64,000 nt of DNA, taken from an uncultured Desulfovibrionaceae bacterium. GTDB taxonomy: Bacteria > Desulfobacterota > Desulfovibrionia > Desulfovibrionales > Desulfovibrionaceae. Where the stretch lies: NCBI GenBank assembly GCA_964440345.1, contig CAYTSA010000008.1, forward strand, positions 1,830 to 65,829. Direction: 5' to 3'. The stretch's first letter is position 1. Every line of letters starts with the position of its first letter. The translations under genes were made by a program, and so were the position numbers. The notes beneath the pieces were generated by a model that was given only the letters and a program-made list of their open reading frames with translations, had not been told where the DNA came from and searched no databases. Of the stretch, positions 18,189-44,632 are shown one piece after another.

Positions 18189-18385
18189 GGTCAGGGTTAC
18201 CTCCTTGAGCGGCCTAAAGGGTATATAGTTCACGTCAACATGATCCAAATGCGACGCTTTGTAACATGCTGCGCGTCATGTCAAGCGTTCATGCTGGGGC
18301 CAGGTCTCTGGAAGGCGATTTCTTTTTTAAAAATCCGCTGCAGCCTCTTGCTTCCTTTGAAGAATAGCCGCGCCATTCAAATCTG

Positions 18386-28960: not shown

Positions 28961-29914
28961 ATGAAAGACAGACTGACCGAAACAGCCAAGTCGGCGTTCC
29001 TGGCCGTGGCCAAGAGAGTGTTCCCCCAAGCCCCGCATGCGGCGCTGCATCGGCTGGGCGACCTTGTCGGCCCCATCATGATAGGCGAAAAGGGCCGCAT
29101 CATCAGAGAAGAGCTGGGCGCGCTGTTGCCGGAGCTTTCCAGCCAGGACCTGGACGACGCGCTATACAAAGCCATGCGCAACTTCCGTAAGGATCTGTTC
29201 GAGATATGGTCCTTCCCCGGCCTGACCCAGGAAAAAGTGAACCGCTTGTGCATTCTGGAAGGCCGGGAACATCTGGACAAGGCCCTGGAAAAAGGCAAAG
29301 GCGCCATTATCTGCCTGACCCATTTCGGCTCCTGGAAAATCGTCCTGCCAGCCCTTGCCTTCAACGGCTACTCCGTGCACCAGGTGGCGGCCGATCCCAT
29401 GACCTTTGTGCGCGACGGGGAAAGCCCGGCCCACAACCAGATCATGTCATTTGAACGGCAATGTGAGGCCAGCTTGCCTGTGCAGTTCATCTACGTAAAC
29501 GACAAAGCAGTCCACAAACCGCTGTACAAGGCCCTGCAGAAGAATGAAATTGTCGTTGTCGCCCTGGACGGCGTCCTGGGCCGGGAACGGCTGTTTTGCG
29601 ACTTTCTGGCCGGCAGTCTGGGACTTTCCACCGGACCCGCGTCCTTGGCGCACCGTACGGGGTCGGCCTTGTTGCCGGAATTCGCCATCCGGGGCAGTGA
29701 CAACAGGCACAGGGTGACCATGCACCCGCCCCTGGACGTTTCCACAGAGCTGGACAGGGAAACCTTCATCCGCCAGTGGTGCGAACGCTTTGCCCGGCTT
29801 TTTGCCGCTCAGGTGCGCCAGCATCCAGACCATTACGCCAGGTTCCTGTTCACCTTGCGCAAATACCCGGTGGAAGGCATAGGGTCGGTCATCCGCGCAA
29901 AGGAAGCAGCGTGA
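28961..29914 (+). CDS. LpxL/HtrB-type lysophospholipid (lipid A-like) acyltransferase family protein
   Basis: 317 aa. Family-typical GKGAIICLTHFGSWKIV block. The usual H-x4-(D/E) dyad reads H-F-G-S-W-K here. Confidence 0.7.
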   Translation: MKDRLTETAKSAFLAVAKRVFPQAPHAALHRLGDLVGPIMIGEKGRIIREELGALLPELSSQDLDDALYKAMRNFRKDLFEIWSFPGLTQEKVNRLCILEGREHLDKALEKGKGAIICLTHFGSWKIVLPALAFNGYSVHQVAADPMTFVRDGESPAHNQIMSFERQCEASLPVQFIYVNDKAVHKPLYKALQKNEIVVVALDGVLGRERLFCDFLAGSLGLSTGPASLAHRTGSALLPEFAIRGSDNRHRVTMHPPLDVSTELDRETFIRQWCERFARLFAAQVRQHPDHYARFLFTLRKYPVEGIGSVIRAKEAA

Positions 29915-31272
29915 AGATATTGCTTGTCCAATCCTGGCTCGGTCCCAATCAGGACTACCCAGTCTACCCTTTAGGGCTGGCTTACCTGGGCACAGCCCTG
30001 AGGAACGCTGGCAGGGAAGTACGCATTTTCGACCCCAACGTGAGCGGCGCGCCCCTGGAAGAACTGAAGGCAAAAATACGGCGTTTCGGGCCGGACGTTA
30101 TCGGCCTCTCCCTGCGCAACCTGGACAACCAGGTGCGCATCGACTTCGTGTATTATTACAATTTTTTCCAGGAGCTGCTGGCCACAGCCTGGCAAAGCGC
30201 TCCAGACGCGCTCCGTATTGTAGGCGGCGCCGGGTTCTCCATGTTCGCCAAGCAGATCATGCAAGACAACCCCGCCATAGACATGGGCGTATTTCTGGAA
30301 GCTGAGGATTCTTTTCCCCAACTGCTCAATAATCTTTCCGCGCCGGAACAGGTAAAGGGAGTCTACTACAGGCGCGACGGCGAGATTCGCTTTACTGGCG
30401 AGGCGCCTGTCCCGGACTTTGCCGCTCTGCCCTATCCACAACGGGATTTCAATGACCTGACGCAGTATAAAAAACATTTTTCCGCTTTCGGCGTGCAGAC
30501 CAAGCGCGGCTGCCCTTTGCGCTGCGCCTACTGCAACTACCCCTTCCTCAGCGGCAAGCGCTGGCGCATGCGCAGCCCGGAACACATTGGCGAAGAGCTG
30601 GAATACCTCCAGTCCCTGGGCGTCTCCTCCTTTGTCTTTGCCGACTCCATTGTCAACTTGCCCTATGACTACTCCGCCGCCATTTTCAATGAAATGATCT
30701 CCCGCAAGGTGAACCTGGAGTGGGTTGGCTACATGCATCTACAAGGAATGACAAAGGAATACATGCTCCTGGCCAAGAAGGCCGGCTGCAAAGTCATGGT
30801 CTTTTCGCCGGACGCCGTTTCAGCCCAAGCCTTGCAAGCCTTGCAAAAAGACATTGATCCGGAAGAGGTCAAAAGAATCTACGCCCTGGCCTGCAAGGAC
30901 CCGGACCTGCGAGACATATATTTCCATTTCAGTTTTTTCATCAACCCGCCCGGGGAGACCTTCTCTGGACTGGCCAAGACGCTTTGGCGCTATGCTGAAG
31001 CCAAGCGGCGCGTTTTTAACCGACGCATCATTGTTTTCATCAACTGGATTCGGGTCGAGCCCCACTCCGAGGTGTACAAAACCGCCCTGGAACAAGGCGT
31101 CTTTACAGAACAGACAAACCTGCTGCCTGCTTCTGCAGACCAAGCCAGCCAATGCTTCTACTCCAACCCGTCGCTACGCTTTATGGACGGACCCATTCAG
31201 TCACTGCTCAAAACGCCCGGCCGCCTGAAAAGCGTGCTGAGAAAAATCAAACCTGCTCCACCAGGAGCCTGA
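29911..31272 (+). CDS. Cobalamin-binding-domain radical SAM enzyme (class B-like)
   Basis: 453 aa from GTG 29911 (VKILLVQSW..., overlapping the upstream stop). Rossmann-like B12-type N-domain. CxxxCxxC cluster motif CPLRCAYCNYP. Confidence 0.8.
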   Translation: MKILLVQSWLGPNQDYPVYPLGLAYLGTALRNAGREVRIFDPNVSGAPLEELKAKIRRFGPDVIGLSLRNLDNQVRIDFVYYYNFFQELLATAWQSAPDALRIVGGAGFSMFAKQIMQDNPAIDMGVFLEAEDSFPQLLNNLSAPEQVKGVYYRRDGEIRFTGEAPVPDFAALPYPQRDFNDLTQYKKHFSAFGVQTKRGCPLRCAYCNYPFLSGKRWRMRSPEHIGEELEYLQSLGVSSFVFADSIVNLPYDYSAAIFNEMISRKVNLEWVGYMHLQGMTKEYMLLAKKAGCKVMVFSPDAVSAQALQALQKDIDPEEVKRIYALACKDPDLRDIYFHFSFFINPPGETFSGLAKTLWRYAEAKRRVFNRRIIVFINWIRVEPHSEVYKTALEQGVFTEQTNLLPASADQASQCFYSNPSLRFMDGPIQSLLKTPGRLKSVLRKIKPAPPGA

Positions 31273-31284: not shown

Positions 31285-32790
31285 ATGGTTCGCGCACAGC
31301 CGCACATACTACGATTTGCATCCTTGATACGATGCTGTGCGTGCGCCTTGTGCGTCGCGCTTGTGTGCGCAGACGCAGCGCACGCTGCAGAAGAAAACCT
31401 GTCCGTGCTGCTTCCGGTAAAGGGCGAGCGTGCTTACTACTCGCCGGCCGTGCCCCCGTTTCCCGCCGGGGCTCAGGTCCCTTCTTCGAACAAAGCGTTT
31501 CCGGAAACAGTGCTGCAGGCCAAACAGGGTCGCGTCGCCGTCTCTTTGGGCCGAGCCCCGGTCATTGTCGAAGACGTTGCGGCCAGGGCCTCCAGCGGAG
31601 AGGGACCGTCGCCCATGGGTTTGCACCCCCCGCACACCTACGCCAAACCTCCCAGCAGCCGCCGTCAGTTGCCGCCGCCCAGCCGCCTTGGCTACATGTA
31701 CGACGACGCCGTTGCGCTCAACGCAGGTTGGGGCCGTCCGGAATACTACGTCCGCTGGGGTCTGGTGCAACCCACAGACGAAGACGTAGCGCGCAACCGG
31801 TTTGACTGGTCCAGCACCGACTACGTAATACAGAGCGCTCCTGCAGACATGGAACTGCTGGTCAACGTTGGCGGCGTCATCTCCCGGCTGAAGGACGGCC
31901 GGCGGGCCGGCCCCACCGCCACGGGAAGCCCTGGCCAGCAGTTGGATTTCGAATTTGCCAAAGAGGAATACGAAGAACGGTTCGCCCAGTTCGTCCAGGC
32001 AACAGTGGAGCGCTATGACGGCGACGGCGTAGCGGACATGCCGGGCCTGCAAAACCCCGTCACCCATTGGCAGGTCCTGAACGAGCCTGATTTTTACGGC
32101 TCTGACGCAGAGGGCTATGGGCGCTTGCTGGCCCTGGCCTCCCTGGGAATACGCCGGGCCTGCCCGGAGTGCCGCATAGCCTGCGGCGGGGTCTCCCGGT
32201 TTCTGGAACAACGCGTTTTCGATGATTTTTACGTACCGGCCCTCAAGCAGTTGGAGCCAGGCGATATTGATATTTTCGACGCCCACCTGCTCACCCAGGC
32301 CGGGGTGTGGGAAAAGGATATTCTAAAACGCATGGAACACGCCCGCAATACTTTGGACTCGCTCGGATTTCGCAATGTGGAGCTCTGGTCTACAGAAGCT
32401 GGAACCTACAGCGGTTCGCCCTTGCATTTTTCCAAGACGCGAAACTTTCCTTACCAGAGCGAACAGGTTCAGGCCGCCGATCTGGTCAAACGCTTCGTCA
32501 GCCTGTTCGGCCTGGGCGCGCGAAAGGTGTTCTGGTCCTTTGGCATAGAGGAAGGATTCATTGGCGACGGCACATTTTTCGACAACTTTGGCCTGATCTA
32601 TGACGGCAAGGGGGATGAGGACCCGGGCCGCGGGGTCCGCAAGCTGGCTTACTATTCTTTTGCCAGGCTGGCGCAGATACTGAAGGGCGCGGACGTTGCC
32701 CGGGCCCGCACGCTGGACCTGGGACCAGGCGTCACGGCTGTGCAGTTTCTCAAAGGCGGCGGGTCTGTCGTTATACTCTGGGCGGACTGA
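31285..32790 (+). CDS. Secreted clan GH-A (GH5/GH39-like) glycoside hydrolase
   Basis: 501 aa. Signal peptide ending AHA-AE. Acid/base motif WQVLNEPDF and nucleophile motif ELWSTEAG, with the spacing expected for a (beta/alpha)8 retaining glycosidase. Confidence 0.65.
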   Translation: MVRAQPHILRFASLIRCCACALCVALVCADAAHAAEENLSVLLPVKGERAYYSPAVPPFPAGAQVPSSNKAFPETVLQAKQGRVAVSLGRAPVIVEDVAARASSGEGPSPMGLHPPHTYAKPPSSRRQLPPPSRLGYMYDDAVALNAGWGRPEYYVRWGLVQPTDEDVARNRFDWSSTDYVIQSAPADMELLVNVGGVISRLKDGRRAGPTATGSPGQQLDFEFAKEEYEERFAQFVQATVERYDGDGVADMPGLQNPVTHWQVLNEPDFYGSDAEGYGRLLALASLGIRRACPECRIACGGVSRFLEQRVFDDFYVPALKQLEPGDIDIFDAHLLTQAGVWEKDILKRMEHARNTLDSLGFRNVELWSTEAGTYSGSPLHFSKTRNFPYQSEQVQAADLVKRFVSLFGLGARKVFWSFGIEEGFIGDGTFFDNFGLIYDGKGDEDPGRGVRKLAYYSFARLAQILKGADVARARTLDLGPGVTAVQFLKGGGSVVILWAD

Positions 32791-32800
32791 GGCAGAGACT

Positions 32801-34279
32801 ATGCAAGCCGCTTCAGCGAAGAGACTCGCTCTGCCCCACCCCCTGGCCGCCGGCGTCGCCATCTTGCTCCTGGGCCTGGCCACGGCTGCGGCCGCGGTTC
32901 CCTTTCCTGCGCACACCGCCCTTGCCGTGCTGGGCGCAAGCCTGCTGCTCCTGTTCTGGCTCAAACTGCCTGTTATCTACAGCGTCACCCTGCTGGCTTT
33001 TCAGACCATTGTCGTCAGCCTTGCCTGGACAGAGGGAACAGTCAAATTTACCCTCAAGCCTTACGATATTCTGTGCATTCTGTGCCTGTTCAGCTTTTTT
33101 ACAGCCCGGGCCATGAACCGCGTCAAGCCATACGCCGCCAAGCCGGGAGACTTGTTGGCCTTTTGCTTGTTTGCCCTGGGCGTCGCCAGTCTGTGGTGGT
33201 CGCACGACGTGGACCGCGGCGTATACGAGCTGCTCCGGCTGTCCGGCGCCTTGTTTTTCGCTCTGGTCCTCACCCCCGCGGTCATCGATTCCGAGCGCCG
33301 GCTCAATCTGCTCATGCATCTGCTCATCATCGCCGGCGTCGTCAACGGCGCCATCTCCATTTTCGCCTTCTACACCTATCCGGACTTTCTCTCCCAGGTG
33401 CTGTACAAAGACCAGACCTACACCATCTCCCTGCTCTTCAACGACCTGACCGTGCAACAACGCGGGCACGGCTTCACCCATCCGTTGAACACGTCCATAT
33501 GGCTGGACATGGCTCTGTTCATGGTTGCCGCCAAGTTTGTGACCATGCCTGCCTCGCCCCAGCTTCTCCGCGGGCGAGCAGGCATAGCGATAACCGGATT
33601 ATTCATTCTTGCCAGCCACTTAAGCACAATGAGCAAAGGCTCTGTATTGAGCATGCTGGCTGTGGCCGGGCTGATTATCCTGGCGGTGCGTCATTTGCGG
33701 CTGCGGCTCTTTCAGAGCGCGGCGGTCGTCGCGTTGGCTCTGGTCTGTTGCTTTCTGGCTGTTCACAGTGTGGACCTGGTCAAACACATCAAGGTCATTG
33801 GCCAGCAGACGCAGGTAGGCGGGGAGCGCAGCTCCGCCAACGACCGCGTGGTCTGGTGGGGCCAGGCCCTGGATAAAACCATGGAAACCGACGGCGCGGG
33901 CGTGGGCGCTGGGGGCATATTCCAGTATCTGGACCCATGGGGCCCACACGCCCACTCCATCTACCTGTCCACCCTGTCAGAATTGGGGTTTCCCGGGCTC
34001 ATTCTTTTTTTACTGGTCTGCATCGTCTCGCTGGTCCACTTCTGCTCCGTCATGCGGCGCTGCAAGAACACCACCAACCAGCTGCTGCTGCTCATGTTCA
34101 CGGCTAACTGGGTGAACATGCTTGTCTACGGCTTTCTGGACCTCACCTACTCCGAAGCCACGGTCTGGGCGCCGCTGGGCATGGCCCACGCCGCCTGCAT
34201 TCTGGTCATGCGGGCGGAAGCCGCCGGCCGGTCCCTCTTCCCCAAGGCCGCCACACAAGAGACAGGCCGTGCACTATAA
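32801..34279 (+). CDS. Wzy-type polymerase / O-antigen ligase family membrane protein
   Basis: 492 aa from ATG 32801 with about 10-12 TM helices. Has the large periplasmic loop typical of Wzy_C/O-antigen ligase proteins. Confidence 0.75.
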   Translation: MQAASAKRLALPHPLAAGVAILLLGLATAAAAVPFPAHTALAVLGASLLLLFWLKLPVIYSVTLLAFQTIVVSLAWTEGTVKFTLKPYDILCILCLFSFFTARAMNRVKPYAAKPGDLLAFCLFALGVASLWWSHDVDRGVYELLRLSGALFFALVLTPAVIDSERRLNLLMHLLIIAGVVNGAISIFAFYTYPDFLSQVLYKDQTYTISLLFNDLTVQQRGHGFTHPLNTSIWLDMALFMVAAKFVTMPASPQLLRGRAGIAITGLFILASHLSTMSKGSVLSMLAVAGLIILAVRHLRLRLFQSAAVVALALVCCFLAVHSVDLVKHIKVIGQQTQVGGERSSANDRVVWWGQALDKTMETDGAGVGAGGIFQYLDPWGPHAHSIYLSTLSELGFPGLILFLLVCIVSLVHFCSVMRRCKNTTNQLLLLMFTANWVNMLVYGFLDLTYSEATVWAPLGMAHAACILVMRAEAAGRSLFPKAATQETGRAL

Positions 34280-35480
34280 ATTCGTAAAACCCCGCACCCG
34301 ACGCATCATGTTCTGCATCGACGCAGCCGGTTTCTGCGTCTGGACGCTGCTGCGGCTTTTCCAGCCCTGGACCTGGTTCCGCTCCCGGAAAATACCTGAA
34401 AACCCCAAAAGACTGCTCCTCATCCGGGCAGACTACATTGGCGACGTTCTGCTGGCCACGCACACCTTCCGGGCCATCAGGCAGAGGTTTCCGCATACGG
34501 AAATAACTCTGCTCACCTCCACCAGGGGGGCGACCCTGGTGCAGGGCAATCCGTACATAGACCGCGTCATGGCCTGGGACCCTCCCTGGTTCTTCCCGGA
34601 CAAGCGCAAGACGGCCTGGCCGGAATGCAAACGCATCATCAAGGAGCTGCAAGCATGCTCCTATGACCTGGGAGCTGACTTTCGCGGCGACCTGCGCAAT
34701 ATCGCCGTGCTGCTCGTTGCCGCGGGCGTGCGCTTCAGAGTCAGCTTTGCGGCGTCAGGGGGGTTTTACCTGCTCCACAAGGTTGTTCCCTACGCTAATG
34801 ACCTGCACGAAGCCGCACACCACACCCGCGTGGCCCAGGCCCTGGGAGCCGACGTGCAGCTCCACGACTCTCCACAGGTGTATGTGGACCAGGAGGAACG
34901 CGCAGCTGTGGACAATTTTATGCAGCGCCACGGTCTGGAAGCCGGCAAGTGCGCGGTGATAGCCCCGGGCGCCCGCAAAAAAGTGCGGCTGTGGCCGCCA
35001 GAAAGATATGCAGAGCTTGGCAGACGGCTGCAAAAATCGTATGGCCTGCGGGTTATTCTGGCCGGCCCGCCTGAAGAAAGGCCCCTGCTGCAACATGTCG
35101 CAGACATGATGGGCGGAGAAGCGGCCTTTAGCTGCGACGGCGTGGCGGACCTGCGCCAGCTTTACGAACTGTTCACGCGCTGCCGCCTATACGTCGGCGT
35201 CAGCTCTGGCCCGGCCCACCTGGCTGCTGCGGCTGGAGTGCCGCAAGTTCTGCTTTTCGGGCCAGAACTGCAAAGCCAGTGGAAGCCGCTCGGCGTTGCA
35301 CACCGCATCATCCAGCACCTTTTCCCATGCAAGCCGTGCACCCAAAACGACTGCCCCAGGCTGGAGGACAACTGCATCAAGGCCATTCGCACGGACGAGG
35401 TTCTGGAGGCCGTGGACGAGCTGCTACGCGCCAGCAGCCCGCATGCTGAAACACATGGCGACTGCCATGAAACTGCATAA
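34269..35480 (+). CDS. Glycosyltransferase family 9 (heptosyltransferase-like)
   Basis: GT9 hallmark LLLIRADYIGDVLLATHTFRAIRQRFP. C-terminal GVSSGPAHLAAAAGVP. The start is either GTG 34269 (overlapping the upstream stop) or ATG 34308. Confidence 0.8.
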   Translation: MHYKFVKPRTRRIMFCIDAAGFCVWTLLRLFQPWTWFRSRKIPENPKRLLLIRADYIGDVLLATHTFRAIRQRFPHTEITLLTSTRGATLVQGNPYIDRVMAWDPPWFFPDKRKTAWPECKRIIKELQACSYDLGADFRGDLRNIAVLLVAAGVRFRVSFAASGGFYLLHKVVPYANDLHEAAHHTRVAQALGADVQLHDSPQVYVDQEERAAVDNFMQRHGLEAGKCAVIAPGARKKVRLWPPERYAELGRRLQKSYGLRVILAGPPEERPLLQHVADMMGGEAAFSCDGVADLRQLYELFTRCRLYVGVSSGPAHLAAAAGVPQVLLFGPELQSQWKPLGVAHRIIQHLFPCKPCTQNDCPRLEDNCIKAIRTDEVLEAVDELLRASSPHAETHGDCHETA

Positions 35481-35621
35481 ACTGCCGGCGTATTCACGCA
35501 TATTCACGCATTGGAAACTGCTCGGCTCCGGTCGCGTTCCCTACCCGCCGGAACATATTTCCATAGAGGCGACAAACGCGTGCAGGGAGCTTTCGGAGGG
35601 GCTGAAGACTCGCTTTGCCCC

Positions 35622-36191
35622 TCAGGCTTTTTCCCGGTGCAGAGCCGGGTCTACAACAATGGACATGGCCTCAGTGTCCAACTTTTTAGACAAAAAACCC
35701 TGGACTTTTTGCGCCCATTCTGTGGGATTCGCCAGGCACTGGCGATAATCCACATACAGCACGTCCATGTTCCGCCTTTTTGTCAGCCACTCCTTCACCC
35801 TGGCCAGGTGGCTGGAAAAAAACACCTCCATGTCTGCGTCAGAAAGGTCGTCTCCCTTGCCCATGCGGCGCATCATGGCCTGCTGCGAGGCCAGCACTTC
35901 CGCGATGGGCCGCAGCATGAAGACCACCTTGCACGGCGTATTCTCCGGCATATGCTGCAGCATCGGAGAGACCACCTTGACCACACGGCCCTCGCACTCC
36001 GCCAGCCAGCTGTTGTCCTCGCGCAAAGATTTCACCTTATCCAACTCGTAGTACCCCTTGGGGTTGCTTGCGTCAGCGGCTCGCTTCCCGTCGGCCGCTA
36101 TATCCAGCCCGCCGGCGGCAAGCATCTGCATCATCATGGACGTGCCGGAACGCGGCAGGCCAGAAACAACAATTATAGGCTGTTGCGTCAT
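35622..36191 (-). CDS. PAPS-type sulfotransferase family protein
   Basis: 189 aa from ATG 36191. 5'-phosphosulfate-binding loop VVSGLPRSGTSMM. ATGA overlap with the upstream DUF362 gene. Confidence 0.7.
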   Translation of the reverse strand: MTQQPIIVVSGLPRSGTSMMMQMLAAGGLDIAADGKRAADASNPKGYYELDKVKSLREDNSWLAECEGRVVKVVSPMLQHMPENTPCKVVFMLRPIAEVLASQQAMMRRMGKGDDLSDADMEVFFSSHLARVKEWLTKRRNMDVLYVDYRQCLANPTEWAQKVQGFLSKKLDTEAMSIVVDPALHREKA

Positions 36192-37567
36192 GTTTGTGTC
36201 CTTTTGGATGAATGTGCCTGCGCGCATTCGCGTATGCAGTGAGCGTAGCGCCGCTGGTTCTCTTCCAAAAAACCCAGGTTGCCGTCATGCGCCACCGCTT
36301 GCTGCGGGCAAGCCAGAAAACAATAAAAACAGTCAATGCACTCGCTGCAGGCGGCCCCGCTTTCGCCCACAGGCGGCAGGTCTCGGGCTGGGTCCAGGCC
36401 CGCGGGGCAGTAGTCTTTGCACACGCCGCAGCCGTTGCACGCGTCCCTGTCCACCCGCAACCGGCCCAGGTCTGGCTCCTGTCCCAAAAAAACGTCCTGA
36501 CGCAACTGCAACAGACACAGCAACTTTCCGAACCACCCAGTGTCGCACAGATATTTGAACAACTGGGTGTTGCGTACGGCCAGAAACACTTTTTGCCGGC
36601 CCGGGCTGTGGATGAACGAGGCCAGCGCGTTGGCCCGGGGCGGTTCAAACTGTCTGGCCCAGGCGGCAAGGTCCAGACTGTCCACTTCGGCCATCATGTT
36701 TGAAGTCAGCATTCCCATGCGCGTGGCCAGGGCCAGTGGGCTCACCTGCTCCAGAGAAAAGCCGGCCAGCTTCAAACACAGGTAATCCAGCACAAATGGG
36801 TCCGTCCCGGCGGCGACCAGGTCGAGCGGCACGGGCCGGCCCCGGGTGGGGCCCAATCCCTCCATGGCCGCCAGCCCGTCCACTATGTGCAGATGCGGCT
36901 GCAGCTGCTGGTTCAGTTTCAGTATATTCAGGGCCAGGTTGTCGTGGACCTTTTTTTTGCTCTCCTGGCCGACCAGGCAACCGATGAGATTTTTCAAGCA
37001 CACGGACATGCCGGTTTCCATATGCGTCTTGATCACCGGCAGATTGATCAAACAAGCAGCCTCGGCGGCTTCCCTCGCCACGCTGGCCTGCAGCCCACGG
37101 TCAAACTCCACCAGACTCGTTTCGGAATAGTTCAGATCAATAACCGGAACTCCATAGCGTTGAGCCAGACGCCGAACGCCCAGCAGCGAGATGACGTCTA
37201 TCTTGTGCCGGTAAAAACCGCTGTTGGTTCCTTCGCCAATGGTCACGTTGGCGTAGCCGGCGTCCTTGAGGACGGCTAGCACAGCAGCCAGCAGCCGCAA
37301 ATCTGTGGTGTTGCCGGTCAGAGCCGTCATGTTTGCGTTCAGGTTCGGCTTCAGCAGCACAGGGGCCTGCTTGTCCTGCGGCAATGCACCGGCAAACCGG
37401 GAGCATATTGCTTCCACAGCCTGACAGGCGGAATCCAGAGAGCGGACCTTGCGCAGCAAAAAGCCCGCGCTATCCGGGAAGGGGGGGGCGGCGCCAGAGC
37501 CCCTGGAGCCGGTATTCTGTATGGGCATGATGACGGTAAAGTGACCATGAAGCCGGGAAAAAAGCAA
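36188..37567 (-). CDS. DUF362 domain protein fused to a 2x[4Fe-4S] ferredoxin domain
   Basis: 459 aa. DUF362 blocks LLKPNLN, INLPVIKTHM, VDGLAAMEGLGPTRG. Two cluster motifs near the C-terminus: CNGCGVCKDYCP and CIDCFYCFLACP. Confidence 0.8.
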   Translation of the reverse strand: MLFSRLHGHFTVIMPIQNTGSRGSGAAPPFPDSAGFLLRKVRSLDSACQAVEAICSRFAGALPQDKQAPVLLKPNLNANMTALTGNTTDLRLLAAVLAVLKDAGYANVTIGEGTNSGFYRHKIDVISLLGVRRLAQRYGVPVIDLNYSETSLVEFDRGLQASVAREAAEAACLINLPVIKTHMETGMSVCLKNLIGCLVGQESKKKVHDNLALNILKLNQQLQPHLHIVDGLAAMEGLGPTRGRPVPLDLVAAGTDPFVLDYLCLKLAGFSLEQVSPLALATRMGMLTSNMMAEVDSLDLAAWARQFEPPRANALASFIHSPGRQKVFLAVRNTQLFKYLCDTGWFGKLLCLLQLRQDVFLGQEPDLGRLRVDRDACNGCGVCKDYCPAGLDPARDLPPVGESGAACSECIDCFYCFLACPQQAVAHDGNLGFLEENQRRYAHCIRECAQAHSSKRTQT

Positions 37568-37572
37568 GGACT

Positions 37573-37587
37573 TGGAAATTGACCTGC
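37573..37587 (+). promoter_or_regulatory. Candidate sigma-54 (-24/-12) promoter upstream of the wza-like operon
   Basis: TGGaaattgacCTGC has the canonical GG-to-GC spacing. It lies about 75 nt upstream of ATG 37662. The -12 element is CTGC rather than TTGC. Confidence 0.2.
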
Positions 37588-37661
37588 GCCCGCGCCAGTG
37601 ACAAGCACGCAGAGCCGTGGTATATACGCTGCTACACGCGCTGCATATTCAGGTACGCTCC

Positions 37662-38453
37662 ATGTTCAGGACACATACTTTATTGACGACAATCCTCCGG
37701 CTTATGACGGCGTTATTTCTGGCCGTTGCATTGCTCGCTTGTGCTGTGTCGTGCTCCCGCACTCAATACCCGGCTGTTGACTACGCCGACGCGCCAGCTC
37801 CAGACCAGGGACCACTGGTGCTTGGTCCGGGCGACGAGGTGCGCATCAGCGTATGGCGCCACGACGACATGAGCCACAGCCCTACTCTGGACATGACCGG
37901 CCGTATCTATCTGCCGCTGGTTGGCGAGATCAAAGCCGGCGGCATGACCCCGGACGACCTGCGGGAGCATGTCGCCACGAAACTCTCCGCCTATGTGAAA
38001 AACCCCCATGTCACGGTCAGCGTGTCCAGCGTGAGCAGCATGCGGGTGCACGTGCTGGGGGAAGTGGAAAACCCCGGGACAATAGCCATGAAACGCCGGC
38101 TGACACTGTGGGACGCTTTGGCCAGCGTCGGCGGGTTGAACACTTACGCAAACGAAGAGCGCGTGCTGCTCATCCGCCATGATGCTGAAAAAGCCCAGGT
38201 TATGGCCCTGAGCGCCAGCCTGCCGGATGCACCGGACGGCGACATGCCGTCCACCCGCTTCTGGCTGCAAAACAACGACATCATCTACGTAACCCCAACC
38301 AGATTGGGAGAGGTAGAGCGGTTTATGACTAAGCTCAACGCTTCCATGGCGCCCTTTCTCACCGTCGGTCGCGCCACGCTGCTGTATCCGGACATAAAAT
38401 CCATCATCGAAACTGGTGAGAGGTCTACTGAAGCCAGCATCATTGTTGACTGA
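37662..38453 (+). CDS. Wza-type outer-membrane polysaccharide export lipoprotein (Poly_export + SLBB)
   Basis: 263 aa from ATG 37662. Lipobox LLAC. LGPGDEVRISVW...IYLPLVGEIKAGGMTPDDL matches the polysaccharide-export signature. Confidence 0.85.
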   Translation: MFRTHTLLTTILRLMTALFLAVALLACAVSCSRTQYPAVDYADAPAPDQGPLVLGPGDEVRISVWRHDDMSHSPTLDMTGRIYLPLVGEIKAGGMTPDDLREHVATKLSAYVKNPHVTVSVSSVSSMRVHVLGEVENPGTIAMKRRLTLWDALASVGGLNTYANEERVLLIRHDAEKAQVMALSASLPDAPDGDMPSTRFWLQNNDIIYVTPTRLGEVERFMTKLNASMAPFLTVGRATLLYPDIKSIIETGERSTEASIIVD

Positions 38454-38491: not shown

Positions 38492-39961
38492 ATGCACGTG
38501 GTGGCGCTGAACGCGCCGTATTTTGACAAATTTTCCCGGCCCCAGCGCAGCCCGGCCGTTACCAAAAGCGGGACCATCTATTTCCCCATCTGGCTGGCCT
38601 TTGCCGTGGCCGTGCTGGAACAAGCCGGCTACGACGTGTCCTTCATCGACGCGCCAGCCAGAGGATATGACCTGGAGGAGACCTTGCGCCAAGTCACAGC
38701 GGTCAAGCCTGGCCTGGTTGTCATGGACACCACCACGCCCAGCGTGGACAACGACGGCGCTGTGGCCCAAGCCATAAAAGAAGCGCTGCCTGACACTGTC
38801 ATCATCTTTGTGGGCGTTCACAGCTCAGCCCTGCCGGAAGACACCTTGCGCCGATGTCCGGCGGTGGACGCAGCAGCCGTGCGCGAATACGAACACACTG
38901 TGCGGGACCTGGCCGCGGCGATTGAAGCCGCGGGGGGACTGCCCGAAACTGGCGTCCTGCGCACGGTCGAGGGGATAGCGTTTCGCCACGCCGACAACAT
39001 CGAACGAACGCCGGACCGGGAATTCATCGAGAACCTGGACGAGCTGCCCTGGGTAAGCCCGGTGTACAAAAAACACTTAGACATCCGCGACTATTTCAAC
39101 CCCAACGCCCGCTACCCCATGGTCACGCTCATCACCAGCCGGGGCTGCCCTTTTCGCTGCAGCTTCTGCGTCTACCCCCAGACCATGAGCGGCCGGCGCT
39201 ACCGGTTCCGATCCATCGCCGACGTTGTGGACGAAATGGCCTGGGTCAAAGAGCAGTTCCCGGAGGCCAAATCCATTTTCTTTGAAGACGACACCCTGAC
39301 CGCGGACAAGAAGCGCTGCCAGGAGTTCAGCCGGGCCGTCATAGACCTCAACCTGGGTCTGAGCTGGACTGCCAATTCGCGCATAGACCTGGACTACGAA
39401 ACCATGGCCCTGATGCGCAAGGCCGGCTGCCGCATGCTCTGCGTGGGCTTTGAAAGCGGCGACCCGGAAGCGCTGAAGGCCATGCGCAAGGGCGTCAAGC
39501 GCGAGCGCATGCTGGAGTTCATGCGCGACGCCCGCAAAGCCGGCGTCCTCATCCACGGCTGTTTCATTTTCGGCTTTCCCGGCGAGACTGCAGAATCCAT
39601 CCGCCGGACCATAGACTTCGCCATGGAGCTGGGTCCAGACACCGTGCAGTTCTATCCCATCATGGTCTACCCCGGCACAGAAGCCTACGACGACTACCTC
39701 CAGCGCGGCTGGGTGACCGTGAACGATTTCAGCCGCTGGCTGACTCCGGACGGGCTGCACAACTGCGTAGTGCGCAACGAGAACCTGACCGGCGAGGAGC
39801 TGGTCCGGCTGTGCGACGAGGCCCGGCGGAAATTCTACCTGCGGCCAGGGTACATGGCTTACAAGCTGCGGCAAGTAATCACCCAGCCCCAAGAATGGAG
39901 CCGCACGGCCAAGGCGGCGCGAACTTTTTTCAAACACCTGATTCTCGGATCCCGGGTATGA
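38492..39961 (+). CDS. Cobalamin-binding-domain radical SAM enzyme (class B-like), second copy
   Basis: 489 aa. B12-type N-domain. Radical SAM motif TSRGCPFRCSFCVYP. C-terminal region typical of this family (FYPIMVYPGTEAY). Confidence 0.8.
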   Translation: MHVVALNAPYFDKFSRPQRSPAVTKSGTIYFPIWLAFAVAVLEQAGYDVSFIDAPARGYDLEETLRQVTAVKPGLVVMDTTTPSVDNDGAVAQAIKEALPDTVIIFVGVHSSALPEDTLRRCPAVDAAAVREYEHTVRDLAAAIEAAGGLPETGVLRTVEGIAFRHADNIERTPDREFIENLDELPWVSPVYKKHLDIRDYFNPNARYPMVTLITSRGCPFRCSFCVYPQTMSGRRYRFRSIADVVDEMAWVKEQFPEAKSIFFEDDTLTADKKRCQEFSRAVIDLNLGLSWTANSRIDLDYETMALMRKAGCRMLCVGFESGDPEALKAMRKGVKRERMLEFMRDARKAGVLIHGCFIFGFPGETAESIRRTIDFAMELGPDTVQFYPIMVYPGTEAYDDYLQRGWVTVNDFSRWLTPDGLHNCVVRNENLTGEELVRLCDEARRKFYLRPGYMAYKLRQVITQPQEWSRTAKAARTFFKHLILGSRV

Positions 39962-40773
39962 ACGCGGCAGAGGGCCGGCTGCAATGCTCCGTTATTGTTC
40001 CGGCGTACAACGCCGCGGCCACGCTGGACTTGTGCCTGCGTTCCCTGACCTGCCAGACCTTTTGTCGTTCGGCGTATGAAATCATTGTCGTGGACGACGG
40101 CTCCGCGGACAACACCGCGGCCATAGCCGAAAACCACGACGTCCGGCTCGTCCAGCAGCCCAATAGGGGCCCGGCTGCAGCCCGCAACCGCGGCGCCCAG
40201 GAAGCCCGGGGCGAGATCATCGTCTTCACGGACGCAGACTGCGAGGCGGAAAAAGATTTTCTGGAAAAACTGCTGGCCCCCTTTGCAGACCCGGGAGTGA
40301 GCGGCGCGCAAGGGGCTTATCTGACCCGGCAAACTTCACTGACCGCCCGTTTCGCCCAGGTGGAGTTTGAGGACCGCTACGCGCTCATGGCCAGGTATGA
40401 CTCCATAGACCTGGCCGCCACCTACGCTGCGGCTTTTCGCCGGGAGCTGTTCCTGGCCATGTCTGGCTTTGACGCGTCCTTTCCCGTGGCTAACAACGAA
40501 GACACCGAGTTCTCCTACCGGCTGTGCAACGCCGGCTGCACACTGGTTTTTGCGCCAGACGCGTACGTCTACCATCAGCACCCGGAGACCCTGCGCCGCT
40601 ACCTGCGCACCAAGTACTGGCGCGCCTACTGGCGCATGGTGGTATACCGCAAATACCCGGAAAAAGCGGTCAGGGACCGCTACACCTCCACGCCAGTCAA
40701 GCTCCAGACCATGTTCATGCTGCTTTTGGCCGCCGACCCTGCTGGCAGCCTTGTTTTTGTGGATAGCCACTGA
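39958..40773 (+). CDS. Glycosyltransferase family 2, probably frameshifted near its 3' end
   Basis: MNAAEGRLQCSVIVPAYN, VVDDGS, DAD (DXD). ATGA overlap with the upstream radical SAM gene. After about codon 258 the expected membrane-anchoring C-terminus continues in the +1 frame (ORF 40469-40963). Confidence 0.75.
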   Translation: MNAAEGRLQCSVIVPAYNAAATLDLCLRSLTCQTFCRSAYEIIVVDDGSADNTAAIAENHDVRLVQQPNRGPAAARNRGAQEARGEIIVFTDADCEAEKDFLEKLLAPFADPGVSGAQGAYLTRQTSLTARFAQVEFEDRYALMARYDSIDLAATYAAAFRRELFLAMSGFDASFPVANNEDTEFSYRLCNAGCTLVFAPDAYVYHQHPETLRRYLRTKYWRAYWRMVVYRKYPEKAVRDRYTSTPVKLQTMFMLLLAADPAGSLVFVDSH

Positions 40774-41061: not shown

Positions 41062-42300
41062 TCAATCCACGCAGGAATCCTGCTCTCTGGCTTTTTTGTA
41101 TTCCAGATAGAAATCAAGAATGTGCGGCGGGCAACCCGGTATGAACTTGCCCACACGGCCGTACTGCCGGTAGTCGTGCACCAACTCCGCGGCGCAGTTG
41201 CCAAAGCACCACAGCTGGCCCTCTTTCTGGCGCAGGTTTTGCCGGTCTGGCATGGGCTTGCCCACGTATACGTTTTCCACAGCGCGGTCAGCAAAAAGCC
41301 CTTCAATGTGCAGTTTGTCCAGAGCGTGGCGCAGGGCGGAAAGGCAGCCAAAACAAGCGCCCCCCTCGACAACACGCACCTGGGGATACGCAGCGATGGA
41401 ACTGATGACCGGCCGGCGAAACGGCCGGCGAACCTCTTCTATGCCTGCCCCGCTCACCTGAATCTCACCCTCCGCCATGGCCCCCAGTCCTTCAGCGTGA
41501 GCCATGCGCAGCATGGTCACCTCAAACGGGTCCACAGACATAACCCGGGCCGCTGTCCCGTCCACCGCCAGCACGTCCCTGCCGGCAATGATGGTGTTCA
41601 TATCGTCCACCACCGCCCCGGAAAGCGGCGCCTGCCCCTGCACGGCCATTATACCGTCCAGTATAGTCAGGTCCGGCTTGACCACCCGCAGTATGTCCAC
41701 CAGCTTGATGTTAATGTCATTTCGATGGAAGGACATCCGGTCCTCGTCCAGAATGAGCCCATACTGGTTCTTCACGCCCAGGGTCAGCAGGGTGTGCATG
41801 TGCGTCTTCATCTTGGGCAGGTTGATGTACACGTCTGCGTCTACCAGGCACTTGGGCACGGTGACCGGGTCGTAGAGCACGGCATTGGGATTCTTCAGGG
41901 CAACCCGAGGCTCGCCGTCAAAAAAGCGTATGGTCGCGCCGGCGGCCTCAAGCCGCTCCCGAACCTGTTCGGTCTGGGCCAAAGCCTTTTTCAGGGGCAG
42001 GCCCCAGCCCGGGTTGTCGCCTATCCAGACCTTTTGGGCGCCAGCGTCGCGCAGCAGCTGCACCAGGGCGATAATCACCCGCTCGTCGGTAACGATGGCG
42101 TAAGGGTTGTGCGCGCTGGGCCGTACGTAGTTGGGCTTAATAAGCACGGTCATGCCGCTCACCAGCCGTTGCAGGTCCACAGCCAACGCCACAGCGTCCG
42201 CCATCAGGTTGCGGATGACAGAAAGTGACTTTTCCGAGTATTCGCCGGGTTTTTCCGGCACGCGCCCGGCCTTTAACAGGCCGACGACAGCTTTTTCCAC
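41062..42300 (-). CDS. DUF362 domain protein (no ferredoxin domain; Cys-rich C-terminus)
   Basis: 412 aa. Shares LIKPNYV, INLPKMKTHM and LDGIMAVQGQAPLSG blocks with the protein at 36188-37567. C-terminal cysteines GGACFGC...CFGNC...GCPPH. Confidence 0.8.
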   Translation of the reverse strand: MEKAVVGLLKAGRVPEKPGEYSEKSLSVIRNLMADAVALAVDLQRLVSGMTVLIKPNYVRPSAHNPYAIVTDERVIIALVQLLRDAGAQKVWIGDNPGWGLPLKKALAQTEQVRERLEAAGATIRFFDGEPRVALKNPNAVLYDPVTVPKCLVDADVYINLPKMKTHMHTLLTLGVKNQYGLILDEDRMSFHRNDINIKLVDILRVVKPDLTILDGIMAVQGQAPLSGAVVDDMNTIIAGRDVLAVDGTAARVMSVDPFEVTMLRMAHAEGLGAMAEGEIQVSGAGIEEVRRPFRRPVISSIAAYPQVRVVEGGACFGCLSALRHALDKLHIEGLFADRAVENVYVGKPMPDRQNLRQKEGQLWCFGNCAAELVHDYRQYGRVGKFIPGCPPHILDFYLEYKKAREQDSCVD

Positions 42301-43862
42301 GCTACTTTACCTCCAGGCGTTCTTGGCAACTCGTCAATAATTTCCACAAGACGCGGAGTCCTGTAGCGGTGCAGCCGGCGGCTGCACCATTTGCGGATAT
42401 CCGCCGCCGTCAATTGGCGTCCCTCTTTTGCCACCACAAAGGCTTTGGGAATCTCACCATGCAAGGCGTCGTCGTTTTTTACCACCGCCGCCTCGGCCAC
42501 GTCTGGATGGGCGCGGATCACATTTTCGATTTCTATGGGATAGACCTTTATGCCGCCCACCTTCATCATGCCGGAAATGCGGCACTTAAAGTAAAAAAAT
42601 CCGTCCTCGCCCTGACACATCACATCGCCGGTGTGGAACCAGCCTTGCGCGTCCGTAACCGGAACCAGTTCTCCGTGGCCTGTCAGATAGTTATGGCACA
42701 CGGCCGGTCCGCGGATGAGCAGCTCGCCCACCTGGCCGGGGTCGGCCTCCTGGCCGCTTTCGTTTGTGATAATGGCTTGATAACCCGGGCAGGGCCGGCC
42801 CACCGAGCCCGGCGGCGCCTCCAGATCGCGGGGGTTGTTGTCCTTCATGCGGTTGGTCAAGGCAACGCCGGCTGTTTCTGTGGAGCCCCAGACGGCTTGG
42901 ATGGGCAAGCCGAACCGTTCGGCAAAGGCCTGGCGCAAGGCGGGTGTTACATGCATGCCGCCGCTCTCCGGCGCCCGCAAGCTGGAGAAGTCCCAGCCTG
43001 TTAAGGAAGGCAAACGAACGAGCGTTTCGTATATGGACGCCACCGCCATCAGCGTGGTCACCTTGTGTTCATGCAGAGCCTTGGCGATGGTCTTTGGCCG
43101 CACGCCATCCAGCAACACAGCCGTTCCGCCCAGAAAGATTGGCCGGGCGTAGATTTCATGCGGGTGCACAAAGGCTGGAAACATACACAGGTGAACGTCT
43201 TCTTCCGTGAACCCAAAGGCGCGGACTGCAGCGATGGTGTTGGCGTCCATGTTGGCGTGAGTGGTCACCGCCGCCTTGGGCCTACCAGTGGTGCCGGATG
43301 TGTAGTTCAGGTACGCTGGATCGTCCGGAATGATGGCCGGCATGGCGGCTGGCCGGCTCATATAGGTTTCATGCTCGGCGTAACTGCGGCGGCCTGCGCC
43401 CCCCATTGCCGCGCCCAGGAAAAAGGTGGCGGCCGGTTCCGGCGCGTCCTGGGCGTTTTGCAGCATGCCGGCCAGTTCGGCGGCGACAAACAAGGCCCGT
43501 GGCTGTGCCTGTTCCAGCACACTGTGCAGCGTTTCCCGCGGCATGTTGCAATCCAGGGGAAAAAACACTCCGCCGCACTCCATTATGGCCAGGTGGCAGA
43601 GCATGGCTTCAGGCGTTTTGGGCCCCAGGCAGCCCACCTTATCGCCCTTGCGCACCCCGGCGTCAGCCAGCATGGCGGCCAGGGCGGACGTACGCTCCTG
43701 CACCTCCTGGTACGATATGCGCACATCGTCATAGATAAAGGCTGCTTTGCCGGGAAAAACGTCCGCGCTGCGCCGCAGCCGTTCGCGAAACGTGCGAAAG
43801 TCTCCTGGAGCGGCATGCGCTGGCTCCGCCGCTATGTTGGTCTTGCCGGTAAAAGCGTACAT
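42273..43862 (-). CDS. AMP-dependent synthetase/ligase (acyl/aryl-CoA ligase superfamily)
   Basis: 529 aa. Core motifs YTSGTTGRPKA, GWFHTGD and PRTPGGKV. 28-nt overlap with the downstream DUF362 gene. Confidence 0.85.
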   Translation of the reverse strand: MYAFTGKTNIAAEPAHAAPGDFRTFRERLRRSADVFPGKAAFIYDDVRISYQEVQERTSALAAMLADAGVRKGDKVGCLGPKTPEAMLCHLAIMECGGVFFPLDCNMPRETLHSVLEQAQPRALFVAAELAGMLQNAQDAPEPAATFFLGAAMGGAGRRSYAEHETYMSRPAAMPAIIPDDPAYLNYTSGTTGRPKAAVTTHANMDANTIAAVRAFGFTEEDVHLCMFPAFVHPHEIYARPIFLGGTAVLLDGVRPKTIAKALHEHKVTTLMAVASIYETLVRLPSLTGWDFSSLRAPESGGMHVTPALRQAFAERFGLPIQAVWGSTETAGVALTNRMKDNNPRDLEAPPGSVGRPCPGYQAIITNESGQEADPGQVGELLIRGPAVCHNYLTGHGELVPVTDAQGWFHTGDVMCQGEDGFFYFKCRISGMMKVGGIKVYPIEIENVIRAHPDVAEAAVVKNDDALHGEIPKAFVVAKEGRQLTAADIRKWCSRRLHRYRTPRLVEIIDELPRTPGGKVAWKKLSSAC

Positions 43863-43867
43863 GGGAT

Positions 43868-44632
43868 CTATTGTTTTTTACTGCTCTTTACAACGCGGTT
43901 CTGACAACCTGTAAAGTGCAGCAGCAGCCTGGCCACAGTCCACATGGTGAGAGCCGCTGTCTTGGCCACAAGCTTGCCGTCATACCAAAAAGACTGATGT
44001 TCCAGATAGTGTTCATCATGTTCTATGTGGTCGCCAATGGGCAGCGTTCGGTGGGGGCTGAGCTGCCAGGGCCCGGTCACCCCCGGCGTCACGTTCAGCC
44101 GGCGGCGCTGGCGGGGAGAATACTGATCCACCAGAAACTGCATCTCCGGCCGCGGCCCGACCACGCTCATGTGGCCGCGCAGCACATTGTAAAACTGCGG
44201 CAACTCGTCCAAGCCTGTCCTTCGCAGCAGACGGCCCACCCGGGTAACCCTGGGGTCGCAGCTGTCATCTTTGGGCGTTGTCGCATATTTAGGGGCAGTG
44301 ATGAACATGGTTCTGAATTTGTACAGAGTGAAGAGCTTGCCGTTTTTTCCAACGCGTTTCTGAGAAAAAAATACCGGGCCCGGGCTTTCCAGCTTCACCG
44401 CCAGGGCAATAATTAGGCTCACAGGCGCAGAAAACACGATGATTGCGCTGGCAAAGCATAGGTCAAACAGCCTCTTTGCCCGCAGATAGCCCCTGGATTG
44501 ATTCGGAACGCCGCTTGTATTCCCCGCGTTGCAATTCTGGCCGCTGGTCCCGGCTTCGAGTGGCGCGGCCTCCTCGCAAGCCATTGCAGCCTGACGCGAC
44601 GAGGCATTATTCCTGTTTGTCATCTCCCCCAC
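43868..44632 (-). CDS. Polyprenyl-phosphate sugar-phosphate transferase (bacterial sugar transferase, small WbaP/EpsL type)
   Basis: 254 aa with one TM helix. Conserved SQKRVGKNGKLFTLYKFRTM and LRRTGLDELPQFYNVLRGHMSVVGPRP. Confidence 0.85.
   Translation of the reverse strand: MGEMTNRNNASSRQAAMACEEAAPLEAGTSGQNCNAGNTSGVPNQSRGYLRAKRLFDLCFASAIIVFSAPVSLIIALAVKLESPGPVFFSQKRVGKNGKLFTLYKFRTMFITAPKYATTPKDDSCDPRVTRVGRLLRRTGLDELPQFYNVLRGHMSVVGPRPEMQFLVDQYSPRQRRRLNVTPGVTGPWQLSPHRTLPIGDHIEHDEHYLEHQSFWYDGKLVAKTAALTMWTVARLLLHFTGCQNRVVKSSKKQ

Follow-up and report, generated by a model that had tools for sequence, protein, structure and literature searches.

What joins a ferredoxin-bearing protein of no assigned function to a sulfotransferase in one operon? 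A 64-kb window (the whole stretch of DNA analysed here, from contig CAYTSA010000008.1 of an uncultured Desulfovibrionaceae bacterium) carries a gene for a DUF362 domain followed by a ferredoxin domain (DUF362-Fd). The end of this gene overlaps the start of a gene for a small sulfotransferase of the type that uses 3'-phosphoadenosine-5'-phosphosulfate (PAPS). A preliminary description of this DNA had proposed that the two proteins are partners acting on the same substrate. Our analysis favours a link at the level of the pathway. With a probability of roughly 0.6, DUF362-Fd and the sulfotransferase are co-transcribed members of a conserved cassette for the assembly of a surface glycan, either a Wzx/Wzy-type exopolysaccharide (EPS) or a polymer resembling lipopolysaccharide (LPS). 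Because both genes lie inside the same conserved cassette, they very probably serve one pathway, and to this extent the earlier proposal holds up.

The gene pair

The pair occupies positions 35622-37528 of the window, on the minus strand, with the following features.

36188..37528, minus strand: DUF362-Fd gene, 446 aa from ATG (open reading frame list, Pfam DUF362 and Fer4 models; identical to public protein P0001)
35622..36191, minus strand: minimal PAPS-type sulfotransferase, 189 aa, starting MTQQP (Pfam Sulfotransfer_1 and Sulfotransfer_3, AlphaFold2 model, Foldseek)
36188..36191, minus strand: ATGA overlap of the DUF362-Fd TGA stop and the sulfotransferase ATG start (read from the sequence)

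Labels such as L001 for loci and P0001 for proteins are those of this analysis. An alternative DUF362-Fd start, a TTG at 37567, gives an open reading frame of 459 aa (36188..37567); the ATG at 37528 is favoured by the public gene call of P0001 and by the alignment of homologues. The sequence and the Pfam scans bear out what had been reported of the pair, namely the two open reading frames, the pair of CxxCxxCxxxCP motifs in the DUF362 protein, the ATGA overlap and a sulfotransferase with a PRSGTS loop.

The sequence AAGGA stands 7 nt 5' of the sulfotransferase ATG. At least four other four-base gene overlaps are present in the window (7354-7357, 25926-25929, 45702-45705 and 47624-47627). Because such overlaps are ordinary here, the ATGA shows operon membership or compaction and no special enzyme pair. 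A promoter and terminator scan of 35300-37800 gave nothing above shuffled expectation. The G+C content of the pair, 0.58-0.61, matches that of its flanks, and the composition profile holds no G+C anomaly that would point to recent transfer.

The best named matches of PurD, at 68-70% identity, are to Desulfovibrionaceae and Desulfobaculum, and the sequence affinity of this protein places the organism in the Desulfovibrionales. The previous view of it as a probable sulfate reducer is reasonable on this indirect ground, but no dsr, apr or sat genes lie within the window to add to it.

A conserved cassette around DUF362-Fd

We surveyed 80 DUF362-Fd loci, one genome per species, at 48-62% identity, from Desulfobacterota, Nitrospirota, Planctomycetota and a few other phyla. 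Open reading frames were taken from stop to stop, and families were defined by our own unbiased clustering together with annotation by hidden Markov models (HMMs). Flanks extended to at most 10 kb, and many contigs were shorter. With L081, the contig of protein P0045 discussed below, the DUF362-Fd loci number 81.

In anaerobic Desulfobacterota, Nitrospirota and Planctomycetota, DUF362-Fd lies in a cassette encoded on a single strand in the order (PslG-like protein, Wzy_C, PF01663), LpxL-type acyltransferase, GT9, DUF362-Fd, B12-binding radical S-adenosylmethionine (radical-SAM) enzyme, GT2, (molybdopterin oxidoreductase, PF01663). This canonical order is found in L004, L014, L046, L056, L058, L063, L064, L076 and others. 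Of the 80 loci, 58 have the radical-SAM family; in 45 its gene lies directly downstream of DUF362-Fd, often overlapping it, and in 43 GT2 follows the radical-SAM gene. GT9 is present in 55 loci and lies immediately upstream in 38, and a PF01663 protein is present in 22. The survey shows DUF362-Fd to be a core member of the cassette. Literature searches returned no description of the core of GT9, DUF362-Fd, radical-SAM enzyme and GT2; this cassette is widely conserved in anaerobes and undescribed in the literature searched.

The window shares the canonical order. Its genes read phosphodiesterase-like PF01663 protein, LpxL-type acyltransferase, radical-SAM enzyme, U500, Wzy, GT9, sulfotransferase and DUF362-Fd, radical-SAM enzyme, GT2. 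DUF362-Fd and the sulfotransferase are inverted between GT9 and the radical-SAM gene, and a Wza-like gene is inserted between DUF362-Fd and the radical-SAM gene. The genes around the pair are as follows.

24511-25929, plus strand: Wzz-like chain-length determinant (Pfam Wzz, NCBIfam)
25926-27269, plus strand: Wzx-like flippase (Pfam Polysacc_synt and MatE)
27339..28958, plus strand: PF01663 (alkaline-phosphatase superfamily) phosphodiesterase-like protein (Pfam Phosphodiest)
28961..29914, plus strand: lipid-A-type (LpxL family) acyltransferase (Pfam Lip_A_acyltrans), in 41/80 DUF362-Fd loci
29776..31272, plus strand: second B12-binding radical-SAM enzyme (Pfam; NCBIfam BzaD-like and lipid-type radical-SAM matches below cut-off)
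31285..32790, plus strand: PslG-like glycoside hydrolase "U500", 501 aa (best PDB sequence match PslG, E=0.004), in 16/80 DUF362-Fd loci
32696..34279, plus strand: Wzy_C (O-antigen ligase or polymerase-like) membrane protein (Pfam Wzy_C), in 20/80 loci
34122..35480, plus strand: GT9 (heptosyltransferase-like) glycosyltransferase (Pfam Glyco_transf_9; weak NCBIfam heptosyltransferase II/III matches)
37617..38453, plus strand: Wza-like polysaccharide export protein (Pfam Poly_export and SLBB; NCBIfam PEP-CTERM export-type match)
38492..39961, plus strand: B12-binding radical-SAM enzyme, HpnJ-like (Pfam B12-binding and Radical_SAM; NCBIfam HpnJ, 415 bits against a cut-off of 578)
39811..40773, plus strand: GT2 glycosyltransferase (Pfam Glycos_transf_2; likely true start an ATG near 39955)
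42273-43862, minus strand: acyl-CoA ligase, in the neighbouring operon 41062..44632 (Pfam, NCBIfam)
43868-44632, minus strand: priming sugar-phosphate transferase, in the same neighbouring operon 41062..44632 (Pfam, NCBIfam)

This is a surface-polysaccharide locus. Its Wzz, Wzx, Wzy_C and Wza, its priming transferase, its GT2 and GT4 enzymes and its PslG-like hydrolase are shared with Wzx/Wzy-dependent loci for EPS or O-antigen, among them the exosortase (PEP-CTERM)-associated EPS loci and Pseudomonas Psl. The locus differs from these in the core of GT9, DUF362-Fd, B12 radical-SAM enzyme and GT2 and in the LpxL-type acyltransferase, which the literature search found in none of the described EPS or LPS pathways. 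U500 has no Pfam or NCBIfam match; it aligns to PslG, the Psl exopolysaccharide hydrolase, at WQVLNEP and WSTE(A)G, which hold the NEP acid/base and TE nucleophile motifs, and it is conserved beside Wzy_C in 16/80 cassettes. A PDB sequence search returned nothing for the PF01663 protein of the window.

Among B12 radical-SAM enzymes of sugars and lipids, the usual radical-SAM neighbour of DUF362-Fd scores best to HpnJ, and GT2 is the next gene. HpnJ acts alongside the glycosyltransferase HpnI. The likeness concerns this neighbour and not the pair; in the window the score falls below the HpnJ cut-off and the surroundings contain no hopanoid genes.

In 20/80 loci (L004, L014, L015, L027, L031, L041, L046 and others) GT2 is followed by a molybdopterin oxidoreductase of cytoplasmic type, with Fe4S4, Molybdopterin and Molydop_binding domains. 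The window has no such gene. The ferredoxin domain could have this enzyme as a redox partner.

The DUF362-Fd protein

DUF362-Fd matches Pfam DUF362 (PF04015) with E=2e-43 and 149 bits against a cut-off of 24, across profile positions 1-199 of 200. Three features of the window bear on its possible function.

36305..36439, minus strand: two CxxCxxCxxxCP motifs, CNGCGVCKDYCP and CIDCFYCFLACP, of a predicted 2x[4Fe-4S] ferredoxin domain (translation)
36944..37024, minus strand: segment HMETGMSVCLKNLIGCLVGQESKKKVH with His169, Lys179 and His195, the equivalents by alignment of LarA His174, Lys184 and His200
41062-42300, minus strand: second DUF362 protein, 412 aa, without a ferredoxin domain and with a Cys-rich C-terminus

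The eight cysteines and two prolines of the ferredoxin domain are invariant in 25 homologues. The scores of Fer4, Fer4_6 and Fer4_7 reach or approach the cut-offs of these models, and the PDB profile matches of this part are to polyferredoxins. In the DUF362 domain, too, about 60 residues do not vary among homologues.

The AlphaFold2 model of DUF362-Fd (pLDDT 87, pTM 0.90) was searched against the PDB with Foldseek, following a check that the preliminary description had proposed. The fold matched was that of LarA, the family of nickel-pincer enzymes that racemise or epimerise 2-hydroxy acids (DUF2088). The top 14 matches are LarA-family structures (6d6z, 7s91, 9eia and 5huq; malate/lactate racemases), with probabilities of 0.99-1.0 and E-values down to 4e-5, and these are the sole significant PDB fold matches of the DUF362 domain. 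Consistent with this, DUF362 belongs to Pfam clan CL0471 together with the N-terminal domain of LarA (PMC11770544); the literature goes no further than this placement, and the earlier statement that DUF362 has no assigned function stands.

A profile of the domain alone gives a gap-free match to the malate racemase Mar2, weak at E=0.57, in which H169, K179 and H195 pair with Mar2 H171, K181 and H197. These Mar2 residues in turn align to His174, Lys184 and His200 of Lactobacillus plantarum LarA. The PDB yielded no other sequence match for the DUF362 domain. Alignments of 25 and of 23 homologues show no variation at H169, K179 and H195, and the arrangement His-x9-Lys-x15-His has the same 10- and 16-residue spacing as in LarA. 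In LarA, His200 is reportedly a nickel ligand. His174 is a catalytic histidine, and Lys184 tethers the cofactor (PMC12611868, PMC11796402). The region equivalent to His108, the other catalytic histidine of LarA, falls outside the weak Mar2 alignment, and the corresponding stretch of the homologue alignment has no invariant His; some LarA homologues function with a single His (PMC12611868). A new family of nickel-pincer enzymes was reported in 2026, but that paper deals with aldo-keto reductases and not with DUF362.

DUF362 thus resembles LarA in fold, in Pfam clan and in the gap-free His/Lys/His. The two differ in architecture and setting. C-terminal of its DUF362 domain, DUF362-Fd has a helical region and then the 2x[4Fe-4S] ferredoxin, which no characterised LarA has, and its gene context is glycan assembly, compared to hydroxy-acid catabolism for LarA. 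The second DUF362 protein of the window is 24% identical to DUF362-Fd and keeps the His/Lys/His triad; its gene overlaps the 3' end of the acyl-CoA ligase gene, in the operon headed by the priming sugar-phosphate transferase.

These features bear on an alternative in which DUF362-Fd is mainly an electron-delivery module for the B12 radical-SAM enzyme, with the DUF362 domain docking or loading electrons and the sulfotransferase sharing the pathway only. Radical-SAM enzymes require a low-potential one-electron donor, and such a role would fit both the invariance of the eight cluster cysteines and the radical-SAM gene that so often follows DUF362-Fd directly. However, about 60 invariant residues in the DUF362 domain, the LarA-like His/Lys/His among them, exceed what docking needs, and the second DUF362 protein of the window has no ferredoxin domain at all. 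The gene arrangement also varies: L005, L038 and L040 have no radical-SAM gene downstream of DUF362-Fd, and in the window DUF362-Fd is inverted and transcribed apart from the radical-SAM gene. We therefore regard this alternative as unlikely.

The sulfotransferase

The 189-aa protein matches Pfam Sulfotransfer_1 (PF00685) with E=2e-13 and 51 bits against a cut-off of 22, and Sulfotransfer_3 (PF13469) with 39 bits against a cut-off of 27. No NCBIfam model matches it. Both PAPS-binding motifs are present.

36138..36164, minus strand: 5'-phosphosulfate-binding loop SGLPRSGTS, residues 10-18, invariant in 25 homologues
35886..35912, minus strand: 3'-phosphate-binding motif R94-PIA-E98-VLA-S102, with R94, E98 and S102 invariant in 25 homologues

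The invariant stretch around the PRSGTS loop is longer, VSGLPRSGTSM, in the same 25 homologues. The 3'-phosphate motif R94-x3-E98-x3-S102 had not been mentioned in the preliminary description. The AlphaFold2 model (pLDDT 88.5) was also compared with the PDB by Foldseek; all 50 matches listed, of 56 at E<=0.001, are PAPS sulfotransferases, with probability 1.0 and TMq 0.5-0.6, among them heparan sulfate 3-OST-3, SULTs, Teg12 and TPSTs. The PDB sequence matches are weak, with E no better than 6e-4.

The enzyme thus shares fold, 5'-phosphosulfate-binding loop, 3'-phosphate-binding motif and PF00685/PF13469 membership with the PAPS-dependent sulfotransferases, including heparan sulfate 3-OST-3, the cytosolic SULTs, the tyrosylprotein sulfotransferases and the glycopeptide sulfotransferases Teg12 and StaL. 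Solved members of this class have 230-330 aa, compared to 189 aa here, and the window enzyme is without most acceptor-binding insertions. As with known PAPS enzymes, its family is linked in genomes to PAPS synthase and CysQ, and the gene itself is set in a polysaccharide locus. Bacterial glycan sulfotransferases, such as rhizobial NodH and LpsS and those of the cyanobacterial sulfated-EPS cluster, are of the PAPS-dependent class too. The window sulfotransferase thus belongs to a known class of enzymes, as a new and minimal member, and its locus is of a familiar type. By inspection it has no signal peptide, and we therefore take it to be cytoplasmic.

Distribution of the sulfotransferase and gene fusions

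The sulfotransferase family occurs within 10 kb in six of the 80 DUF362-Fd loci. It lies directly downstream of DUF362-Fd in three (L005, L038 and L040), at spacings of 2 nt in L005, about 20 nt in L038 (Desulfamplus magnetovallimortis) and about 110 nt in L040. In the others it lies between GT9 and DUF362-Fd (L057), before GT9 (L056) or before the acyltransferase (L028). With L081 and the window this makes eight cassette-borne sulfotransferases, always on the cassette strand and in four different positions. The closest relatives, L001-L003 (Desulfovibrionaceae, 58-62% identity), are without it, and the nearest homologue of the window sulfotransferase is 54% identical and lies outside any cassette. 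The cassette sulfotransferases form at least four to five sequence groups and are not one another's nearest relatives. These separate groups suggest, weakly since the family is star-like at 50-60% identity, that the sulfotransferase was recruited into the cassette repeatedly; it is an accessory member, which may have been acquired several times.

We also surveyed the surroundings of the sulfotransferase in 80 metagenome loci of its own family (L082-L161). DUF362-Fd adjoins in one of these (L141, a 1.7-kb contig) and in none of the 45 loci of at least 5 kb. More frequent neighbours are a PF01663 protein (26/80), a sulfatase-like protein (10/80), a fused Sat-CysC PAPS synthase (6/80) and a CysQ-like protein (3/80). 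The Sat-CysC and CysQ neighbours support PAPS dependence of the family. The PF01663 protein, not DUF362-Fd, is the usual companion of the sulfotransferase, and the PF01663 protein of the window (27339-28958) matches this neighbour family with E=1e-94. Removal of 3'-phosphoadenosine-5'-phosphate (PAP) and hydrolysis of PAPS or of adenosine-5'-phosphosulfate (APS) are possibilities for its role.

Protein fusions give a second view of these associations. In the representative search, at the protein level, DUF362 is fused to GT2 in P0244 (702 aa) and DUF362-Fd to a WecG/TagA/CpsF glycosyltransferase in P0266 (681 aa). Fusion partners of the sulfotransferase are PF01663 plus TPR domains, a sulfatase, a DegT-type sugar aminotransferase, and TPR domains; P0305, P0345 and P0379 are sulfotransferase/PF01663 fusions. 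This set of fusions agrees with the neighbourhood data, and P0244 and P0266 are independent hints of a role of DUF362 in glycan assembly.

One predicted protein, P0045 (609 aa), unites DUF362-Fd with the sulfotransferase; its gene lies within the same cassette on L081. The contig has 3.53x coverage, and its radical-SAM, GT2 and acyltransferase genes are split by frameshifts or overlapping frames (12283-14752 and 5576-5929). These splits indicate indel errors, so that the fusion may be an artefact. No second protein matching both halves of P0045 was found among 1.84 billion representative proteins. We considered P0045 as Rosetta-stone proof of partnership and rejected it as firm evidence, given a singleton on a frameshift-ridden contig of such coverage.

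Could the two genes nonetheless form a dedicated two-enzyme unit, in which DUF362-Fd oxidises or reduces the sulfotransferase's own acceptor and the two proteins are kept at a 1:1 ratio by translational coupling? The ATGA overlap with its internal Shine-Dalgarno sequence, the recurrence of the gene order in L005, L038, L040 and L141, and P0045 would fit such a unit, and a 189-aa core without acceptor-binding insertions could lean on a partner for acceptor recognition. The wider record argues otherwise. Four-base overlaps are common in the window, L028, L056 and L057 carry the sulfotransferase elsewhere in the cassette, the other fusions join each protein to different partners, and P0045 stands alone, among frameshift-split neighbours. 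We consider a dedicated unit quite improbable. The preliminary description would have counted itself refuted had the two genes been neighbours in no other genome; adjacency does recur, in the four loci just named, and that refutation fails, but at 3/80 DUF362-Fd loci and 1/80 sulfotransferase loci adjacency is rare. The specific partnership that it proposed is unsupported, since the constant partners of the two proteins differ (GT9 in 38/80 and the radical-SAM enzyme in 45/80 for DUF362-Fd; PF01663 in 26/80 for the sulfotransferase) and there is no recurrent fusion.

At the other extreme, the juxtaposition could be meaningless, a mobile sulfotransferase having landed behind DUF362-Fd during a local inversion, where it is tolerated or acts on an unrelated small molecule. 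The pair is indeed inverted relative to the canonical cassette, the closest relatives L001-L003 have no sulfotransferase, and the nearest sulfotransferase homologue is not cassette-borne. Yet eight independent cassettes carry this family of about 190 aa, always co-oriented and in several sequence groups, which is far above expectation for a gene absent from most 20-kb stretches. In addition, the G+C content fits the flanks and all catalytic motifs are intact. Chance placement is thus very unlikely.

Sulfate activation

No Sat, CysC, CysDN or CysQ was found in the 64-kb window with Sat-CysC and CysQ models and Pfam scans of the window open reading frames. The same two models also returned no ATP sulfurylase, APS kinase or CysQ from the 81 DUF362-Fd loci. 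The Sat-CysC HMM misses the CysD-CysN pair, which was found by unbiased clustering. An ATP sulfurylase of CysD (PF01507) and CysN (an EF-Tu-like GTPase) directly follows the PF01663 gene in 11/80 cassettes (L027, L031, L046, L049, L050, L052, L061, L064, L066, L068 and L076), about 6-9 kb downstream of DUF362-Fd. There it closes the cassette, behind GT2, the molybdopterin oxidoreductase and PF01663, with no APS kinase within reach, and none of the 11 cassettes has the sulfotransferase. CysD-CysN in 11 further cassettes means that sulfur-oxyanion chemistry recurs in the cassette; sulfur-oxyanion genes are a recurrent optional extension of it. Literature searches turned up no functional study of DUF362 or of the cassette.

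That DUF362-Fd itself takes part in sulfur-oxyanion chemistry, for example by reducing or handling an activated sulfate or sulfite intermediate on the way to a sulfonated or sulfated sugar, is highly improbable: sulfotransferases (8 cassettes), CysD-CysN (11/80), molybdopterin oxidoreductases (20/80) and PF01663 proteins (22/80) recur, and the LarA cofactor is strongly inhibited by sulfite, which binds it covalently (PMC12611868), but about 60/80 cassettes have no sulfur gene within 10 kb and the constant partners of DUF362-Fd are glycosyltransferases and the radical-SAM enzyme.

A proposed pathway

Taking the two genes as members of one glycan cassette, we propose that the cassette would build a lipid-linked glycan in the cytoplasm; the product may be an EPS, an O-antigen or LPS core, or a glycolipid. 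Before Wzx-type export, the sulfotransferase would use PAPS to sulfate either the lipid-linked repeat unit or a sugar precursor, forming an ester. With its LarA-like fold and retained His/Lys/His, DUF362-Fd is taken as a hydride-transfer enzyme, which would modify a sugar by oxidation, epimerisation or reduction at a LarA-like site. Its two predicted [4Fe-4S] clusters would supply or remove electrons, connecting DUF362-Fd with low-potential carriers, with the neighbouring radical-SAM enzyme, or with both. This particular chemistry of DUF362-Fd is tentative; we give it a low probability and far less confidence than the shared cassette.

Several results weigh against this proposal. APS kinase was found neither in the window nor in the 81 DUF362-Fd loci with the Sat-CysC and CysQ models. 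The likeness to LarA is distant, at about 10-15% identity and TM-scores of just about 0.3, and the sequence link for the triad hangs on the one weak profile match to Mar2, backed by fold and spacing. Pfam DUF2088, the N-terminal domain of LarA, gives no match even at E<=10, so that by sequence DUF362-Fd is not a member of the LarA family. No larB, larC or larE was seen in the 64-kb window, and literature searches gave no functional study of DUF362. Lastly, at least nine Solidesulfovibrio-type loci carry DUF362-Fd without the cassette, and its role therefore may not be tied to this glycan.

The cassette-less DUF362-Fd proteins (L010, L016, L018, L022, L030, L039, L045, L051, L059, L079 and L080; 53-57% identical) come from Solidesulfovibrio-type and some other genomes. 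By eye, their gene neighbours include histidinol-phosphate-aminotransferase-like and cytidylate-kinase-like genes.

Other genes in the window

At the edge of the polysaccharide locus, beside a GT2, an open reading frame of 556 aa (20967-22637, minus strand) has no Pfam or NCBIfam match, and the same is true of one of 463 aa at 8160-9551 (plus strand). Positions 10101-15376 (minus strand) encode an unusual signalling pair, a 1322-aa protein with pentapeptide repeats and a class-I adenylate cyclase domain, then a DUF3391/HD-domain protein. A polyamine operon at 15473-18248 (minus strand) comprises pyruvoyl-dependent arginine decarboxylase, a deoxyhypusine-synthase-like protein and an agmatine-deiminase-type (PAD_porph) enzyme.

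Implications

Taken alone, the sulfotransferase would mean just one further sulfated polymer at the cell surface, a modest finding. It would gain some interest in a sulfate reducer, where formation of PAPS would tap the same APS pool as respiration; competition between the two, as the preliminary description envisaged, may follow. The same DUF362-Fd/sulfotransferase adjacency is present in a tractable organism, Desulfamplus magnetovallimortis.

DUF362 is very common. It is a fixed part of this cassette, is fused to glycosyltransferases elsewhere and keeps the tether and ligand residues of LarA, which together provide a concrete hypothesis for its function. We speculate, while considering it doubtful, that DUF362 is a second, very large branch of hydride-transfer enzymes of the nickel-pincer type, or with an analogous covalently tethered cofactor. 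In DUF362-Fd a LarA-like site would exchange electrons with the low-potential pool of anaerobes by way of two [4Fe-4S] clusters. This would allow a net redox step, beyond racemisation alone, on a sugar in the course of surface-glycan assembly, together with the B12 radical-SAM enzyme; the sulfotransferase, or CysDN and PF01663 in other lineages, would then sulfate that sugar. If true, the link between DUF362 and LarA would be of greater interest than the gene pair itself.

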